This document shows, piece after piece, positions 492-15,841 of a DNA stretch of 64,000 nt. A model generated the notes under the pieces. The model had not been told where the DNA came from and ran no database searches. It saw only the letters and a program-made list of their open reading frames with translations. How positions within the stretch are numbered: the stretch's first letter is position 1; the number at the start of each line of letters is the position of its first letter. The DNA is from Bacillota bacterium (lineage in GTDB: Bacteria; Bacillota; DTU025). The stretch spans positions 1,344,001-1,408,000 of the forward strand of contig JBMNJT010000002.1 in assembly GCA_050951805.1 (NCBI GenBank). The letters run 5' to 3'. Made by a program: the position numbers and the translations under genes.

Positions 492-3400
492 CTAGTATTC
501 CCAGTCAGGGTATATCATTGGTACCACTGCGAGCTTCTTGGCGGAAACATCATAGGCGGAAAGTATCTCCTCTTGAGTACGTCCTGTGGGAACAAGCATA
601 TCGATAACGTTCGGGTCGTACACGCTGTTGTCGCCTCCACCGAAACGCCACTCTGCGGCCTGTTCCATCACCTCGCGGACACGCAGATTGCCCTCAGATG
701 GATAACCTTCCTGCCCAAGCACGAACACTTGGTAGCCCCAACCGGGCTCTGGCTGGCCTATAATGGACTTAGGAACCGAAATCGAAACCAGATTGCCTAT
801 GGTGTCAACGGTGGCAGTGACGCCACCAACATCGCCACCCTCGGGCATGAAGACCCTTTGGTTCCATCCTTCGACCCAGATCGCGTATTCCCACGCACAT
901 TCCGGTTCAAACTCGACTCTTCTGCCACCCAACGCTTTAGTCGATCCCGAGCTTGCCTTGTTGTCTGTATCGATGTAGATATCGATAGTCTGCACGGAAA
1001 GCCCGATCCCGGAGTTCCAAGGATTTGTTATCTCTCCTGCAAGCTCAACGTTGAAGACGACCTCCTCACCGGAATCGATAACTTCAAACGAAACCATATC
1101 GAAGGCTCCCGGCGTGAACACGGGGTTGGTGGGATAGTTGTAGGTTCCGGGACCATGATCATCACCCCGCGGATCTTCGACCCTGAAGAGCCGACGCCCA
1201 ACGGTGACCACCGGGGCCTTGAACTCTGCCGGCCCCGATGTAGGGATCATGTCGATGTTTTGATCCTTACTAGATGCTACAACAACAATGTGAGCTACAT
1301 CGGCCGGTTTCATCCGCAAAACCTCAAATGGCACGGAGATCTCAAGGGCCTCCCCCACTCCGACTGTGTTAATACGACTCACTTCTGTCCAGGTATCGTC
1401 GCCTGCCGCCACCGACAGGAGCGCGGTCGCGCGGCCAGCTCTCTCGATACCTGCAAAGTCCACTAGTATCTCTGTTCCCGGAGCGAATCCCAATACCGTG
1501 GCATCGCGTCCTGATGCGCTCCCGCGGGGAATAGTGTTGACCTCGTGCCGCCTTGGATTGGTGAGATATGCAGCGATCTTGATGTCTTTGCCGTAGAGCT
1601 CATCAAATCCGTCTTGCGTTCTTATGCGGATATAGAGGTTCTCGTTATCCACTCCAACACGCAGAGACGAGAAGATATTCTCGCCTTCACCCCAACTGAA
1701 CACAGCAGCATCGTCTTTGGGATAAAACGACGACTTCTCCCATTCGCCCCAATCGATGAACCCGTCCATCACGGGTTCATGCATGAGTCCGGTAATCCGC
1801 TCTTCCGGGATTGCAGCACGCTTCGGGATTATGGGCATGTAAAGATAGTTTGGAACCTCAAGGCCGATGTAGGAGTAGATGTTTTGTAAGTGGATCCTGA
1901 AGAGCTCGTCGAAGGCTTCATCATTGCCCGAATCCTGATCATCACCGTACCACCAGAACCAGTCAGAGCCCTCAGCCGCGTAGAGCTCCTCCCATGCTCG
2001 TTCAAGGGCGGTCATCACCTCATCATCAGCCGAATCGGCGTGTTCTGCTGTGAAGCCGGCAAGAGCCGTCCGGGCCTTCGACAGATAATCCCATGCACGA
2101 TTCTCTTCCACCTCGCCTATCCATGTCTCAAGGTCGTCAGATATCCATGAGCCAGTATGCAACATGGGAATTCTCTCTGTTGCAGGATGCGCGGCAAGAT
2201 ATTCCTCAACTGTGACTGCCTTGAAATCCGGATCATCATTCAAGGCTTCGTATAGCGTGTGCAGGAACTCCTTGCCGTCGTTTTCATAGTATTCCCAGCA
2301 ATTCTCGCCATCGAGGGCGATCGTGACTACATGCGGGCCGGGAGTTGAGGCAAGGCTCCTCTTTACGCTTCGCAGATAGTCCGTGAGATCGCGAGCAGCT
2401 GCGCGACCGCTCATCCCTGAATATGAGAATCCTATCTTGTCGGAAAGAACGATGTCTCTGAAGAGTATCGTGACTTCTTTGCCGTCTTGCTCGACGATGT
2501 AAGGTTTATAGAGGACATCAGGCCGGACGATCCTGCCTGCCCCGTCCCGCAAACCTATTCCTAGGGATTGCGCGAGCACGCCTTCACTCGAAACCATCCA
2601 CTGGAAACCCGCCTCGTGCACGATGCCGACTATGTCCTGCCCAACTGCCTGTTCCGACGGCCAGAGTCCGCGTGGAGCCACAGCAAAGTGATCTTTGTAG
2701 AAATCGACGGCCTTCGAAAGCTGCGCCTCGACATCTTCAGGGTAAGCGAACGGTTCACTCGGCAGCTCCAGCTTGGGGCTAGCGACCCGAGCAAGCTCGA
2801 CATCATAGATCAACGGCATTATCGGATGGTAGAATGGAGTGGTGGTAACCTCGATCTGTCCTGCGTTCTGCATCTCCCGATAAATCGGAATGACGTTGCG
2901 AATTATCTCGTTATGCTTGTCGAGAACAACTCGCTTATCCTCTTCGGTGAAGCCTCGGCCCTTTCTGACCAACGCCTCGATACTCGGATCTTCATCAATG
3001 AAGTCAGGGTCGAGCCAGGCCAAGTTGAACCAGACCTGCAGGTCGCGAAAGTCCTGTTCGTCGTAGGCCGCTATAGCCGCGGCAATGGATTCATCGGTCA
3101 CTCCCTGTCCCCGCTTGTTCAGGAGTTGCCAATATCGGGGGTACTTTTTGATGATGTTGTCCCAGTTGGCATCGAAAAACCTTCTCAGAATGAAGTCTTT
3201 GTCATCATCGGTCAATTCCGATGCAGGTTTGAGAGAAAGCAGGAGCTGCACGTCTTGAGCCCCGTCCGCGTACTCATCTAGTTGAAGGATGAGTGACGGC
3301 ACCAGGTTGAAGGTGACATGAACGTTGGGATAATCCTTTAGTATCGATGCCATGTCGTAGTAATCTTTTACTGCATGCATGCGCACCCAAGGCATCATAT

Positions 3401-3560
3401 ACATATCGGTTGCAGTGTTTTTGTAGAATGGCTGGTGGTTATGCCATATCAACGCAACGTAGAGGGGTTCGCCTGAGCCCACTGACGCTGGCGCCAGCCA
3501 TAAGGCCATTGCCACCAGCGTGCAGAGTGTGAGAACGCCATATAGTCTTCTCATCCCCAT
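492..3560 (-). CDS. apu: Secreted GH57 amylopullulanase with C-terminal glucodextranase-like DOMON domain
   Basis: Signal peptide; GH57 motifs IWHNHQP, HPIMP, GLWPSEQAV (nucleophile E), IALDGENCWE (acid D), AEGSDWFWW; C-terminal DPRGDDHGPGTYNYPT DOMON-like motif. Confidence 0.92.
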   Translation of the reverse strand: MGMRRLYGVLTLCTLVAMALWLAPASVGSGEPLYVALIWHNHQPFYKNTATDMYMMPWVRMHAVKDYYDMASILKDYPNVHVTFNLVPSLILQLDEYADGAQDVQLLLSLKPASELTDDDKDFILRRFFDANWDNIIKKYPRYWQLLNKRGQGVTDESIAAAIAAYDEQDFRDLQVWFNLAWLDPDFIDEDPSIEALVRKGRGFTEEDKRVVLDKHNEIIRNVIPIYREMQNAGQIEVTTTPFYHPIMPLIYDVELARVASPKLELPSEPFAYPEDVEAQLSKAVDFYKDHFAVAPRGLWPSEQAVGQDIVGIVHEAGFQWMVSSEGVLAQSLGIGLRDGAGRIVRPDVLYKPYIVEQDGKEVTILFRDIVLSDKIGFSYSGMSGRAAARDLTDYLRSVKRSLASTPGPHVVTIALDGENCWEYYENDGKEFLHTLYEALNDDPDFKAVTVEEYLAAHPATERIPMLHTGSWISDDLETWIGEVEENRAWDYLSKARTALAGFTAEHADSADDEVMTALERAWEELYAAEGSDWFWWYGDDQDSGNDEAFDELFRIHLQNIYSYIGLEVPNYLYMPIIPKRAAIPEERITGLMHEPVMDGFIDWGEWEKSSFYPKDDAAVFSWGEGENIFSSLRVGVDNENLYIRIRTQDGFDELYGKDIKIAAYLTNPRRHEVNTIPRGSASGRDATVLGFAPGTEILVDFAGIERAGRATALLSVAAGDDTWTEVSRINTVGVGEALEISVPFEVLRMKPADVAHIVVVASSKDQNIDMIPTSGPAEFKAPVVTVGRRLFRVEDPRGDDHGPGTYNYPTNPVFTPGAFDMVSFEVIDSGEEVVFNVELAGEITNPWNSGIGLSVQTIDIYIDTDNKASSGSTKALGGRRVEFEPECAWEYAIWVEGWNQRVFMPEGGDVGGVTATVDTIGNLVSISVPKSIIGQPEPGWGYQVFVLGQEGYPSEGNLRVREVMEQAAEWRFGGGDNSVYDPNVIDMLVPTGRTQEEILSAYDVSAKKLAVVPMIYPDWEY

Positions 3561-3715
3561 CTCTCCTTTTAATACCGGATTCTGTGTACCGCCATTTCCG
3601 ACCTCCGCACTTGGCGCGAAAGCCCATATGTGCCACTACGTGCTAGGTTTCTATATCGATCTGGCAAATCCTTTGTCGGTACCGATGCTGTAACGTCCAA
3701 AGACGCGACGAAATG

Positions 3716-3838
3716 GGCAACCGCCTTTCGCAATCCGAGACGTAAGCCTTCACAGGAATTACAGCTTTGCCCTCAACTTCTCGGCAAACCGTTCCTTCAT
3801 GGCTTAGGAACTTAACTTTTTGCTGCAAAACGGTGGAA
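3716..3838. promoter_or_regulatory. Three putative LacI-family operator-like sites upstream of the amylopullulanase
   Basis: GGCAACCGCCTTTC (3716), GGCAAACCGTTCC (3783) and TGCAAAACGGTGGAA (3824) share a GCAA(A/C)..CG half-site. Confidence 0.3.
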
Positions 3839-4042
3839 CATTGCTACAGATGAATCCCCTGTTTGAGCAAGTATGCTGCCTCTTGGCAAAAGCTTACGGA
3901 AGCCTTGATGATAAGCGTACCATTTAGGAAGAGCATAAAGCCCTTGCCAAAGAGATTAGGGAGCTCCTGTACCGGCTCTGTGAAAACGTAACAGCCGTCA
4001 GAAACTCCCTGAAATGCGCATGATCACACGATGCGAATCTGA

Positions 4043-11454: not shown

Positions 11455-11673
11455 CTAACGGAAGAGAGAAAGCATCCACTTTGCGGCCTTGTCTATCCAG
11501 ATCGCCGGATTCGGAATATTCACCCCGAGTAACATCAAAAGCGCCAGCGTGAAGTCGAGCCCTACAGCGAAAACAAACACGGCCAGCTCCCGCCAGAGCT
11601 TGTTCCTTATGAGGTCCGGCGCCTCATAGAATCCCAAAACGACGACCGCCAAGACTAGCAGCACTATATTCAC
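11455..11673 (-). CDS. Small two-TM protein at the end of the ger operon (putative germinant-receptor D-type subunit)
   Basis: 72 aa, two hydrophobic helices, YEAPDL..KLWREL..IPNP motif; overlaps the upstream ger stop. Confidence 0.75.
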   Translation of the reverse strand: MNIVLLVLAVVVLGFYEAPDLIRNKLWRELAVFVFAVGLDFTLALLMLLGVNIPNPAIWIDKAAKWMLSLFR

Positions 11674-14063
11674 TGCTGTCCACCCGATCCTCCCATTTCA
11701 TTCAGCTTGACGCTGCGCACAGTCAGCCCGCTCCTGACCAGTGTTGCCTCGATCTCGATCTCCGGCTCTATTTCAGCGAAAATGTCGTACCAACCATCCC
11801 GGATCTCTTTCCAAAGTTTCGGACGGGTTCGATGGATCTCGCGCCCAAAACCGAATACATCTGCTCGAAGATCCTGAGCCTTCTTCACAGCGGCCATGAT
11901 TTCATCCTCTATCGCCTTTGCCATCAGCCGCTCCATCGACTCCCACAGTCCAGGGTGAGCGTACAGGTCGACGTACGGCTGCACATCCGATATGTTAGCC
12001 TCTGCCTTTATCTTAATGACGATCCCTATTGTTTTTCCATTGTCTTCGATTTTGGGTCTGAAGGATCCACTAGATCTGATGATTTCAAGTCCAACGCGAG
12101 ACCCTAACGAAGCCTGACCCAAGCTCAGTTCAGGCGCATCTATTACCAGAATCCCGGACTTGGTCTTTCCCGTTATCCAATTGTATCCTCTGGCTTCGCG
12201 TCCATCGAGCCATCCTACCAGCTTATCGCTACGAAATACTGCTGCGCCCGTCAACCTAGCCACAGATTTAATCTGCTCCCGTGTGACGTCTCCCGTGATC
12301 TCGTAAGGATACGTATACGGCATGACCTCTATGCGCAAAGCTATTGGATCAATTCCTTCCGATTCCAACGCCATAACGAAGTCATTGACTGAGGCAATAA
12401 CAATAGTCGACGTGCTCTTCGAAGCGTTCATCGCAATGCCCATCCCCGCTTCCCCTGGCACTCGCTCCAACTCAAATTCCGATTGGAGCAGATCCCATGC
12501 CCTAGCGCCTGAGGCCACGCCCAAAACGGCTCGCCGCCGAGTTTCTTGGTCGCGCACTAAAAAGTCAACCGCCCTTGCCACTCCGCCCTTTGCGAACTCC
12601 TCGCCGAATAGCACCCATCTACTGTGCGGCCAGGAGAGCCTGCGCGGCGAAAGCTCCGACACATTGCGCACTGCCTCAAAGATGGTATATCCTGTCGCGC
12701 TTATTACCCAAAACGGCTTCTCAGGTGCAGGCCCACGTTCGCCACTGACTATAGCGGAAGGTTTGACTACGTGGGCCGTGACCTGAATCAACTCGCCGGG
12801 ATCGCGTTCTTCACCCGGCAATTCCCAGTGGGTCTTGCCCAATGCGGTATCTACTCCCACTGCGTTGACAAATCCCAGGCTCTCAATCTCCCTGTGACTC
12901 CAACACCCTGTAGCAAGAAATGCAGTAAGCCCTAGAGCTAGTATTGCCGCTATCATTCTCGTCCCGCCGGGCCCCTCGCCTTTCCGTCGATTCAACCACC
13001 TTGCTCCAGTCAGCACAACCAGCACAGCAATAATGAAGACCGCCGTGACAAGGCTCCCGCTCTTGGCAGAAGCGGACCTGTCAAATGCTCCCATGTTGGG
13101 CCACATACCCAATCCCATGATCACCGCCAACCCTCCCAGGGGGTAGACTAGTGGTTCGTAGCGCTTTAAGCCAAGCAAATTCGCACTAGCCTCAGCCGCC
13201 GCCCAAAGCGATGTGGAAAGCACAAGGCCCGCCCCGGAGGTCCATGAGGCAACAGTAATCAGCTCCAGCCTTTCAAAGAATTCCCCAAGGCTGATCATGC
13301 GGGTAAGGCTGAGGGCAGGCAACTCAAGTGACGTGGCAAGAGGCCCGAAGACCGCTGTAACAACCACTGCAAGAAGAATCAGGATAGCGCCGCTTATCAG
13401 GGCAGAATAGACTGTGCCTCTCATAAGATCCCGGCCGCTTTTCATGTAGGGCGCTATCATCATGAGCACGTTAAGGTCGAGGAAGAGACTGACTGCAGTT
13501 CCAGTCGGGAGCGCCAATGAACTCAGGTCTTCAGGAAGAAGCGGCAACAGGTTTCTAAATTGCATGACGTCTGCAGGAAGAGTGAACGTAAGCAGCAATC
13601 CCAGAAGGATCAAAACGGCTGTAAGCTCCGACATCATAGCAATCAACTTTATGCCGCGCCGAGCTATGCCCGAACTGACCAGCGCCGTCAGAACCATGAA
13701 GACTACGATAGGAGTCTCCGGCATGGTACCAATCACATAAGCCTCTCCCACCGAGCGCACTTGCAAAGCCGCAAGAAGCATCCAATAGAAGACGAAGAGC
13801 CAGCCTACTGCTCCACCTACAGTCGTCCCAAGACGGCGGCGCGATATTTGAATAATGTCATCAAGCCCTTCCGCCCTTGACAGCGACGCCATCCACACCA
13901 GCAGAGGCAGGGAGATGAGAGTACCCAAGGCCCCTGCTATCCACAACCCATGGGAAGACTGCATGCCTATCATCATTGGGAACGTCAGAGTGACAGGCAA
14001 AGCCCTCTGTAAGAAAAGAATCGACCCTAACTGGCGCGCGGTCAGCTTATGGGACATAGTCAT
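11670..14063 (-). CDS. Fused spore germinant receptor subunits GerAB (APC permease) + GerAC (lipoprotein)
   Basis: Roughly aa 1-360 are GerAB-like (MPETP, NLLPL, ISLGEFFERLE); then the linker RRKGEGPGGTR, hydrophobic helix with lipobox LATG-C, and GerAC motifs WSHREIE, GYTIFEA, GAAVFRSDKLVGWLD, DVFGFG; no stop between the halves. Confidence 0.9.
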   Translation of the reverse strand: MTMSHKLTARQLGSILFLQRALPVTLTFPMMIGMQSSHGLWIAGALGTLISLPLLVWMASLSRAEGLDDIIQISRRRLGTTVGGAVGWLFVFYWMLLAALQVRSVGEAYVIGTMPETPIVVFMVLTALVSSGIARRGIKLIAMMSELTAVLILLGLLLTFTLPADVMQFRNLLPLLPEDLSSLALPTGTAVSLFLDLNVLMMIAPYMKSGRDLMRGTVYSALISGAILILLAVVVTAVFGPLATSLELPALSLTRMISLGEFFERLELITVASWTSGAGLVLSTSLWAAAEASANLLGLKRYEPLVYPLGGLAVIMGLGMWPNMGAFDRSASAKSGSLVTAVFIIAVLVVLTGARWLNRRKGEGPGGTRMIAAILALGLTAFLATGCWSHREIESLGFVNAVGVDTALGKTHWELPGEERDPGELIQVTAHVVKPSAIVSGERGPAPEKPFWVISATGYTIFEAVRNVSELSPRRLSWPHSRWVLFGEEFAKGGVARAVDFLVRDQETRRRAVLGVASGARAWDLLQSEFELERVPGEAGMGIAMNASKSTSTIVIASVNDFVMALESEGIDPIALRIEVMPYTYPYEITGDVTREQIKSVARLTGAAVFRSDKLVGWLDGREARGYNWITGKTKSGILVIDAPELSLGQASLGSRVGLEIIRSSGSFRPKIEDNGKTIGIVIKIKAEANISDVQPYVDLYAHPGLWESMERLMAKAIEDEIMAAVKKAQDLRADVFGFGREIHRTRPKLWKEIRDGWYDIFAEIEPEIEIEATLVRSGLTVRSVKLNEMGGSGGQQ

Positions 14064-15673
14064 TGCTCCTTCCTGCGGCCTTCCCGAAACGTGCTATGTT
14101 CGTCCTTGTGGTTTGCCGCCGAATCCATCCTCGTCTGGTTGTACCAAGTCAGCCATTCCGGACGCTCCTTCATCGCCCGCCACGGGACCCGCAAAATCGC
14201 GTCCCTAAGTCCTGCATCAATTACCGGCGCGATGGGCGACATGTAGGGAACCCCGAAAGACTCCAAGGATGTGAGGTAAGCGAAGAGGGCAAGCGCGCCT
14301 ATGGCTATTCCGAAAAAGCCGAGAAAAGCCGCGAGAAAGAGGAAGGCGAAACGAAGCACCCTGATTCCTATAGCAAGGCTAAATGCGGGTGTTGCGAGAG
14401 ATGCAATGCCAGTTGCTGCAACGACCATTACCATGATCGGCGATACGAGACCTGCTCGAATGGCAGCGTCACCCAACACCAACACCCCCACTATGCTGAT
14501 GGCCGGGCCAATGACACGAGGAAGGCGTATGCCAGCCTCCCTTATCAGCTCAAACATGACCTCCATTATGAAGGCTTCAAGGAAGGCGGGAAAAGGAACG
14601 CCTTCTCTTTGAGCGGCAATGCTAAGGATCAAAGAAGTCGGAAGCATCTCCTGATGATAGGTTGTTACTGCAACATAGAACGAGGGCATAAGAAGCGAGA
14701 CGAAGACAGATAGCACTCTGATCAACCTGATCAGTGTCCCAGCGTAAAACCGTTCGAAATAGTCTTCAGGAGTTGACAGAAGCATCGTGAGGGTAACAGG
14801 AACGATCAGCGCAAATGGGGTCCCGTCAAGAAGGATGGCCACCCTCCCCTCAAGGAGAGCTCCAACAATTCTGTCAGGTCGCTCGGTTCGGGCTATGGTT
14901 GGAAAGGGAGAAAACGGAGCATCTTCTATGAGTTCCTCCAATTGCCCGGATTCCTGAATCGAGTCGATATCGATCGCCGCTAGCCTCGATCTCACCTCTT
15001 CAATGATGCTGGGACGAGCTATTCCCTGAACGTAAGCGATTACCACTGACGTCCGAGTCAGCCTGCCGAGCCGGCATTCTTCGATACGCAGACAGGGATG
15101 GGCGATTCGTCTCCTCAGTATCGAGGTATTAACCCGTATAGACTCTACGAAGCCTTCCTTCGAACCACGCACCGTCGCCTCTGTGTTAGGCTCTTCGGGG
15201 CTGCGCTGCTCCCACCCTTGCACGGCGCAGGCGAGCGCAGTTGGCAGGGAGTCTATCAACACTACGCATGAGCCTTCAGCAATCCGCAACGTCGCCTCAT
15301 ATCCATCCACGACCTTGTCGACGCCTGTCACCGATATCAGACCATCGTGAAGCTCGTCCAAAACACTCTCGGGCGAATCGAGGCTCTCTGTCATCACCGT
15401 AATAGAACGAACTACGCTTTGGGCCACAAGAAGCCCGTCCACTAGACCATCGAGATGAATGACAGCGGCCGACACCGAGCCCCCTTTTCCTGCTCGAAGC
15501 CGGCGTACAACAAGGTCGCTGCTGCTGCCGAAGGCCTTTACGATGTAAGCGATGTTGTTCTCCAGGTCGGAGCTGAGTTGAGCCGAATCGCCTTCGCTAG
15601 AAATGATGTTCTTGCCCCGCTGCCTGTCACCTGCTATCGCTCGCATGATCTTCCTTGCAAGTCTTGAAAGCAA
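14060..15673 (-). CDS. Spore germinant receptor A subunit (GerAA/GerKA family)
   Basis: EEPNTEATVRGSKEGFVE, SPFP..TERPD, LLEGRVAILLDGTP, REGVPFP, EAGIRLP, SFGVPYMSP; start refined to TTG 15673 (ORF track gives 15841). Confidence 0.92.
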   Translation of the reverse strand: MLSRLARKIMRAIAGDRQRGKNIISSEGDSAQLSSDLENNIAYIVKAFGSSSDLVVRRLRAGKGGSVSAAVIHLDGLVDGLLVAQSVVRSITVMTESLDSPESVLDELHDGLISVTGVDKVVDGYEATLRIAEGSCVVLIDSLPTALACAVQGWEQRSPEEPNTEATVRGSKEGFVESIRVNTSILRRRIAHPCLRIEECRLGRLTRTSVVIAYVQGIARPSIIEEVRSRLAAIDIDSIQESGQLEELIEDAPFSPFPTIARTERPDRIVGALLEGRVAILLDGTPFALIVPVTLTMLLSTPEDYFERFYAGTLIRLIRVLSVFVSLLMPSFYVAVTTYHQEMLPTSLILSIAAQREGVPFPAFLEAFIMEVMFELIREAGIRLPRVIGPAISIVGVLVLGDAAIRAGLVSPIMVMVVAATGIASLATPAFSLAIGIRVLRFAFLFLAAFLGFFGIAIGALALFAYLTSLESFGVPYMSPIAPVIDAGLRDAILRVPWRAMKERPEWLTWYNQTRMDSAANHKDEHSTFREGRRKEQ

Positions 15674-15705
15674 CTCTTTCCCACCCTGCCAACAAATCCT
15701 GTATA

Positions 15706-15735
15706 CATTCTTTCTCCATGATAGCAGCGGTATTC
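15706..15735 (-). promoter_or_regulatory. Putative forespore sigmaF/G promoter of the ger operon
   Basis: GAATA-N15-AGAAAGAATG about 35 nt upstream of the TTG start; ger operons are normally forespore-expressed. Confidence 0.45.
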
Positions 15736-15841
15736 GATAATCCTCTACCCTCCCCTGCCAGAGCCTGCCATCCCGCATGTGCCAGAGGCACGAGCAATTA
15801 TCGGGGCAAGCATCCTCGCTCGCAGAAACGACACCACCCAA

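Follow-up and report, generated by a model that had tools for sequence, protein, structure and literature searches.

A GerB-GerC germinant-receptor fusion with an internal lipobox in a Bacillota genome, and a graded series of gerB-gerC junctions among its relatives

A germinant-receptor operon carrying a fused gerB-gerC gene, here called gerBC, was analysed in a 64,000-nucleotide stretch of a Bacillota bacterium genome of the DTU025 lineage (assembly GCA_050951805.1, contig JBMNJT010000002.1, positions 1,344,001 to 1,408,000 of the forward strand). The whole of this stretch is referred to below as the window. The operon lay on the minus strand and consisted of three translationally coupled genes: gerA, gerBC and a conserved open reading frame (ORF) for a 72-aa membrane protein (Table 1). 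Both gene borders were 4-nt overlaps, the gerA stop sharing ATGA at 14060-14063 with the gerBC start, and the gerBC stop sharing GTGA at 11670-11673 with the start of the 72-aa ORF. The mutual binding of the A, B and C subunits in the GerA-family receptors is textbook knowledge; in the window, the ligand-binding permease B and the lipoprotein C were encoded as one polypeptide, and this fusion is very probably real, conserved and functional. A previous examination of the window, made from its letters without database searches (the sequence-only reading), had described a two-gene receptor in which a permease ran without a stop into a lipobox and a full GerAC domain. The single 797-aa ORF and its domain matches agreed with this description, and the number of genes at the locus was corrected to three.

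Table 1. Genes of the operon and parts of the gerBC product (positions in the window)
Feature	Position	Strand	Properties
gerA, channel-forming A subunit	14060..15841 (as listed ORF)	-	Pfam GerA PF03323, E 6.1e-178, residues 99-562
gerBC, fused ORF	11670..14063	-	797 aa; ATG start; stop codon included; Shine-Dalgarno sequence GGAAGGAG, pairing energy -8.2 kcal/mol
GerAB-type permease part, residues 1-354	13002..14063	-	PF03845, TIGR00912; ten predicted transmembrane helices, APC/LeuT fold
Basic Gly/Pro-rich linker RWLNRRKGEGPGGTR, residues 355-369	12957..13001	-	K+R = 5, D+E = 1
Hydrophobic segment MIAAILALGLTAFLATG, residues 370-386	12906..12956	-	former h-region / predicted 11th helix; starts with a non-conserved in-frame ATG at 12956
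Lipobox Cys387 (TGT), context A-T-G-C-W	12903..12905	-	conserved in fused proteins
GerAC-type domain, residues 388-797	11673..12902	-	PF25198, PF05504, TIGR02887; predicted at the outer face of the inner spore membrane
72-aa ORF, conserved	11455..11673	-	GTG start; Shine-Dalgarno pairing energy -10.4; two hydrophobic segments

The N-terminal part of the gerBC product was recognised by the Spore_permease family (PF03845) at residues 25-316 (E 1.8e-33; 116.2 bits, cut-off 23.4) and by the endospore germination permease model TIGR00912 (144.1 bits; NCBIfam cut-off 139.55). In an AlphaFold2 model of gerBC (102-row alignment, mean predicted local distance difference test score, pLDDT, of 88.5), ten helices lay within residues 9-360, from helix 9-26 to helix 337-360, mostly with pLDDT above 90. 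A Kyte-Doolittle scan resolved 8 segments only, and the helices of the model were used instead. The Foldseek matches of this part were AdiC, ApcT and a bacterial CAT homologue (E 8e-9 to 2e-7; TM-score normalised to the target 0.63-0.65). Thus, the B part had the score above the cut-off, the ten-helix APC/LeuT-type fold and the gerA gene directly upstream that are expected of a B subunit.

The C-terminal part matched Spore_GerAC_N (PF25198) at residues 390-579 (E 8.5e-34), Spore_GerAC (PF05504) at residues 605-779 (E 2.9e-42) and the Ger(x)C model TIGR02887 (267.8 bits; cut-off 163.25). Its best Foldseek match was the GerBC crystal structure 3N54 (E 1.7e-12, target TM-score 0.68). It agreed with the Ger(x)C proteins in its scores over the cut-offs and in its GerBC-like fold, and it departed from them in being no polypeptide of its own: the signal peptide, which stands at the N-terminus of those proteins, was internal here and occupied residues 355-386 of the 797.

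The two parts met in the sequence ...ARWLNRRKGEGPGGTR-MIAAILALGLTAFLATG-C387-WSHREIE. Comparison with the DNA of split relatives showed that the linker combines the old cytoplasmic tail of B with the n-region of the C signal peptide, and that its DNA is what is left of the G-rich Shine-Dalgarno region of gerC. In the model, the linker had a pLDDT of 56-62 with a loop at residues 361-367, and an 11th helix spanned residues 368-386; this helix and the lipobox were the least confident part of the model (pLDDT 49-62). The sequence-only reading had placed the basic linker in the cytoplasm, with the former C signal peptide as an extra transmembrane helix and its Cys outside, and the ten preceding helices, the loop with five basic residues and the modelled helix 368-386 fitted that topology.

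A lipobox carries a small residue at position -1 and Cys at position +1. The lipobox of gerBC had been called intact, and it indeed read A-T-G-C387-W. It followed a basic n-region and an uncharged h-region of 17 residues, as in a lipoprotein precursor, with the difference that the signal peptide did not stand at the precursor N-terminus but after 354 residues of a membrane protein. Residues G386, C387 and W388 were invariant in the alignment of nine close fused proteins (9/9). Across fused sequences of all lineages, the G-C pair was found in 16/16 and C-W in 15/16. The length of the h-region was also held, with a median of 17 residues and a range of 15-18 (n=16) in the fused forms; for the separate GerC signal peptides the median was 16 and the interquartile range 14.75-17 (n=132). 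All 16 fused sequences had a basic n-region, with 2-8 K+R among the 15 preceding residues. The h-region sequences themselves varied freely; in the lineage of genomes G005 and G010, four unalike h-regions all ended in S-G-C-W. Since G-C was kept in every fused sequence while the h-regions drifted, the lipobox appears to be under selection in the fused state. The joint has therefore retained every feature of a lipoprotein signal peptide, with no growth toward a longer membrane span. The genes of the two enzymes that act on such peptides, lspA and lgt, were found in the same genome, adjacent and on the same strand, 39 bases apart (G000:C2:1148662-1149806), both scoring over the Pfam cut-off.

A longer form of the joint was observed in the high-GC genome G027 (locus L085, G027:C1:2196000-2202500). 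B and C shared a frame there through a Pro/Gly/Ser-rich linker of about 75 aa, a cytoplasmic linker much longer than in the other fused forms, and the signal peptide ended in L-G-G-C-Y.

The fused architecture was shared by eight protein clusters with 99, 77, 67, 64, 62, 62, 62 and 60% identity to the window protein, and one of these clusters had sources that included NCBI, JGI and ENA. None of 66 loci from species-representative genomes was fused (51 split, 14 without a B match upstream and 1 unclassified). Among 80 metagenome loci, 5 were fused, 48 split, 22 lacked a B match and 5 lacked the start of C; a partial locus among those 22, L097, also read through the joint. The fused forms were 5 of the best 150 among 8,827 matches in a collection of 1.84 billion representative proteins. 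Fused frames were also confirmed in G005, G010, G040 and G027. In the ESM Atlas, Spore_permease and GerAC_N occurred together in 29 of the 30 nearest named clusters, all from Bacillota, and four of these had 60-80 members of 697-774 aa. The B-C fusion is a minority but recurrent form, present in databases under automatic names. A literature search, with most subscription journals outside its reach, found no paper discussing natural B-C fusions.

Within the genus of the window organism, the 797-aa query gave distant matches only in G001 and G002 (completeness 97% and 72%; best E 1.4e-22 and 5.2e-19), and no fused operon was found in these two genomes. Orthologues with 62-69% identity occurred in another genus of the same family. 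The search for related fusions that the sequence-only reading had proposed thus found them in several lineages, and the relatives were a mix of fused and split forms rather than uniformly split, the outcome that this reading had named as speaking against it. One match stood out by its label: contig JBLNCC010000073.1 (L025), titled as a Betaproteobacteria metagenome-assembled genome (MAG), carried a gerB-gerC pair 48% identical to that of the window and nearly the same as in several Bacillota MAGs. This contig was probably mis-binned.

The close relatives formed a graded series of junctions. In the state designated S1 (G007, G008, L098, L099 and L101), B lay two frames from C and its stop overlapped the start of C. 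The genomes G007 and G008, from the same family, were 64-69% identical to the window and had the same operon including the 72-aa ORF, with B and C separated by an ATGA or GTGA overlap. In the state S2 (L092, L093, L095, L100, L094 and L096), one additional G in the run of Gs within the gerC Shine-Dalgarno sequence put B in the frame of C, and B ended at a TGA inside GGTGAG, two codons before the gerC ATG (...GDAGRRG, stop, DW, MTRR...). The fused locus L091 and the fused proteins P0005-P0008 were colinear with S2 codon for codon and had GGA at the TGA position and AGG at the ATG position. The linker of the window was 17 nt shorter than that of G007 over the stretch between the R of RWL and the Cys codon, and a decayed Shine-Dalgarno sequence and an ATG were still visible in it. 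The fusion arose by the merging of frames where the B stop and the C start lie a few bases apart, inside the G-rich Shine-Dalgarno sequence of gerC, and all intermediates are represented among the relatives. A scan of the phylum was made in which two candidates were scored per genome, 150 of 419 matches were considered and four genomes were inspected; in at least nine further genomes, B and C shared a frame and were separated by a single stop. Raw material for fusion is thus common.

Some of these junctions deserve a description of their own. In G244, G308, G197 and G404, gerB and gerC were in one frame with a single stop just before the gerC start, and at same-frame loci of this kind any read-through of the stop codon would yield a fused protein from a nominally split locus. 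At the S2-type metagenome locus L102, ACG was found where the relatives have the gerC ATG (...GRRG, stop, DSTTRRVV...), and no start was evident before the signal peptide. A sequencing error, a pseudogene or dependence on read-through could explain this junction.

The direction of change was followed in a tree built from the B and C parts joined end to end, after removal of the linker columns, with the root placed on 12 split outgroups. Twelve fused rows and the split pair G007/G008 formed one clade with 100/100 support, and within it the split pair was nested in a sub-clade of fused forms that also had 100/100 support. A branch with the fused rows as one side occurred in 0 of 200 bootstrap trees. 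When seven split rows of the near clade were added in a quick tree, S1 and S2 formed one clade (SH-aLRT 94) that was sister to the fused P0005-P0008, and the fused P0004, P0003, the window with P0002, and the G005/G010 lineage lay outside this group. A grouping of P0076, G040 and G027 in a tree of the C part was not relied on, as it joined long branches. Parsimony favours one old fusion followed by one later separation. The alternative, a split ancestor, would imply four or more independent fusions; it is suggested by the outgroup junctions, all of which (17/17) were split with an S1-type frame relation, and by the B tail of G004 (...NAGRRG, stop), which resembles the S2 tail (...DAGRRG, stop). 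By either route, the state has switched two or more times in a single clade, with one or two point changes per switch. Because close relatives show the series from overlap through in-frame TGA to fusion, the fused/split state is evolutionarily labile.

It is highly improbable that the fused frame of the window is an artefact of assembly or the recent inactivation of a redundant receptor, even though the junction is G-rich and prone to indels and the genome carries two further receptor loci of the classical kind, with separate B and C genes. Each of the 85 31-mers sampled from positions 12600-13400 was present in 14 DNA runs, which came from 6 studies of metagenomes from sludge, digesters and soil; these were per-run Logan contigs rather than raw reads, and the assembly may derive from some of the runs. 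RNA runs, with partial shares in contig form, were left out as evidence of expression. One contig from each of the runs X5, X10 and X13, belonging to three studies, covered all 801 bases with 0 differences and 0 gaps. In run X15 of a fourth study, a diverged strain covered 12600-13289 with 7 substitutions and no indel. The junction, which the sequence-only reading had singled out for a check in raw reads, was confirmed in these contigs. The fused frame was moreover retained across 60-77% identity, and both halves scored as full-length family members and folded confidently, with the tenth transmembrane helix intact. A frame that does look damaged was encountered in G393 (locus L177, G393:C11, ORF 1489-3858 on the minus strand). 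Its uninterrupted B-C frame of 789 aa was not counted as fused, because its B tail lacked a hydrophobic tenth helix and read like a shifted frame before a canonical MMKNK... signal peptide; it was probably a frameshift, by error or recent mutation, and not a working fusion.

Neither does it seem probable that the fusion is merely apparent, with GerC made mainly as an ordinary prolipoprotein from the ATG at 12956 and the read-through product being minor or non-functional. This ATG is codon 370; it is in frame, its place 17 codons ahead of the Cys is that expected for the start of a separate gerC, and the DNA upstream of it resembles a decayed version of the Shine-Dalgarno sequence of the split relatives (GGGACGAGA versus GGGGTGAGA). 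However, its anti-Shine-Dalgarno pairing energy of -5.5 kcal/mol was matched or exceeded by 32% of all ORF positions, a background level, as the sequence-only reading had foreseen in calling the site weak. The corresponding values were -8.2 for gerBC, -10.4 for the 72-aa ORF and -9.3 for the separate gerC of G007 and G008, and real starts of the operon family ranged from -7.3 to -10.4. Met370 was found in only 2/9 aligned fused proteins, that of the window and the one 99% identical to it; I, L, S or N stood at this position in the rest. A signal peptide starting at Met370 would have no basic residue before its h-region, and ribosomes translating B must read into C anyway. Among seven fused lineages with DNA, one had a well-placed in-frame start with a strong Shine-Dalgarno sequence: the P0008-like L091, with a GTG 16 codons before the Cys and a pairing energy of -10.0. 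In the P0003-like L090 there was no ATG, GTG or TTG 8-32 codons before the Cys, and in G010, G040 and G027 no in-frame start with a usable Shine-Dalgarno sequence preceded it. The additional start at 12956 that had been suggested is thus unsupported as the general route to GerC, and internal initiation may contribute in some lineages.

We proposed that gerBC encodes a precursor that is lipidated and cleaved by Lgt and LspA at its internal lipoprotein signal peptide, and we consider the chances of this to be about even. The 797-aa precursor would insert with its linker in the forespore cytoplasm and its 11th helix oriented N-in/C-out, so that the lipobox would be exposed at the outer face as it is by an N-terminal signal peptide. 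Lgt would then add diacylglycerol to Cys387 and LspA would cut before it. The products would be a normal lipid-anchored GerC and a GerB keeping the old signal peptide as an extra C-terminal helix, and the mature receptor would be the usual A:B:C assembly. The unchanged signal-peptide features and the selection on G-C would be accounted for by such processing, and so would the easy interchange of fused and split states, since processing would leave almost identical mature products. In the B. subtilis receptor, the lipidated N-terminus of GerAC is reported to be sandwiched between GerAA and GerAB (bioRxiv 10.64898/2026.08.27.747515, a 2026 preprint), and GerF/Lgt is described in a 2025 review as needed for normal receptor function (PMC11841064); these two reports would explain why Cys387 stays under selection. 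As weaker support, the low confidence of the model at helix 11 and the lipobox is in keeping with a helix that does not pack into B. It is a tentative suggestion, falling just short of an even chance, that gerBC represents a natural polyprotein resolved by the lipoprotein pathway, which would be the first described internal site of signal peptidase II.

Several points weigh against processing. Cleavage was deduced from conservation alone, and the literature search, which included the term 'internal lipobox' and left most subscription journals uncovered, found no published action of Lgt or LspA on a lipobox after ten transmembrane helices. LspA might not reach a helix tethered to a large membrane protein, and in G040 the hairpin between the tenth helix and the h-region is about 3 residues (G-R-K). 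The G-C-W motif may serve the fold or contacts in the A-B cleft without cleavage. If the fusions were mostly young and independent, the retention of Cys could in part reflect too little time for decay; however, the end branches of the G005/G010 lineage were 0.35-0.76 changes per column long and all its rows were fused. Finally, GerK is reported to tolerate the loss of GerF or of its Cys, possibly via an uncleaved hydrophobic anchor of GerKC (PMC11841064). Because of this tolerance, a permanent tether can work, and the main rival to processing is that the former signal peptide remains as an 11th transmembrane helix joining the C domain to B, with Cys387 lipidated or not. We regard such a tether as rather doubtful, yet a serious candidate. 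Besides the tight G040 hairpin, the GerK case and the lack of a published internal signal peptidase II cleavage in the literature searched, it agrees with the modelled helix 368-386 directly after a short loop and has a precedent in OpuA of L. lactis, in which a binding domain is reported to be held by a signal anchor (PMC2861598). However, it offers no reason for the invariant G(-1)-C(+1) in 16/16 sequences while the helix drifts, nor for a hydrophobic stretch held at the signal-peptide length of 15-18 residues. If Lgt lipidates the Cys, nothing known would stop LspA from cutting, and the model has its lowest confidence at helix 11.

Compared with the classical GerA-family receptors, such as GerAA/GerAB/GerAC of B. 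subtilis, the operon had the same three families in the same A-B-C order with translational coupling, the same folds (LeuT/APC for B, GerBC-like as in 3N54 for C) and the same G-C-W start of mature C, which was present in 116/132 separate GerC representatives. It differed in that B and C were one polypeptide and the C signal peptide was internal, after ten transmembrane helices. The split orthologues of the same family (G007, G008 and L092-L102) were 62-69% identical and syntenic, including the 72-aa ORF, and had a homologous signal-peptide region; in contrast to the window, their B and C were separate, with an ATGA/GTGA overlap or in one frame with a single TGA two codons before the ATG. A split orthologue and a fusion are one point change (TGA/GGA) or a one-base indel apart. 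A membrane protein and an exported partner are likewise joined in one precursor in FbcH of Bradyrhizobium, a cytochrome b/c1 polyprotein that is cut at an internal signal peptide by the type I signal peptidase, whereas the cut proposed here would be made by Lgt and then LspA. In OpuABC of L. lactis, the substrate-binding domain is joined C-terminally to a polytopic membrane domain by a signal anchor, and OpuAC of B. subtilis is the lipid-anchored counterpart of that domain, as reported in PMC2861598. The families are unrelated, and OpuABC is described in that source as staying covalently linked. All the Ger fusions keep a lipobox. GerA is reported to be a pentamer of A:B:C heterotrimers (bioRxiv 10.64898/2026.08.27.747515), and a fixed 1:1 ratio of B to C, which the sequence-only reading had considered as a benefit of the fusion, would therefore add little.

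Regarding the neighbouring genes, the listed gerA start, TTG 15841, was doubtful because it had almost no Shine-Dalgarno sequence (pairing energy -1.5) and the Pfam domain began only at residue 99. The pairing energies at TTG 15673 and ATG 15646 were -8.1 and -5.2, and the true start probably lies further downstream, at one of these two codons. A regular-expression search upstream of gerA for the consensus of a sigma-G-type promoter gave no full match, a result that carries no weight for or against such a promoter. Homologues of the 72-aa ORF were detected by tblastn in 91/167 loci, from many Bacillota, and the ORF adjoined gerC in the loci inspected. Its conserved motif was YE.P.L.R.K.WREL ... 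G..PNP, and searches of Pfam and NCBIfam gave no family match. The D subunit of germinant receptors is described as a protein of 76 aa with two transmembrane segments, encoded in or beside a receptor operon (PMC4661057). The 72-aa ORF corresponds to this description in its length (about 70-80 aa), its two hydrophobic segments and its place, and by this likeness to a published description it fits as a candidate D subunit.

Germinant receptors sense nutrients and thereby bring spore dormancy to an end; their subunit architecture has been resolved only recently. The receptor family itself is well known, and the B-C fusion is a conserved natural variant of it. As this fusion shows, a covalent link across the membrane between the C-terminus of B and the N-terminus of C is possible without loss of the gene, and such a link fits the reported place of the lipidated C N-terminus beside B. 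The graded junctions provide a clear example of translationally coupled genes fusing and, possibly, separating again. If the precursor is processed as proposed, Lgt and LspA would need no free N-terminal signal peptide, the rules of lipoprotein prediction would widen, and a simple design would be available for producing pairs of a membrane protein and a lipoprotein in fixed 1:1 amounts. If it remains unprocessed, a plain helix would be able to replace the lipid anchor in germinant receptors.

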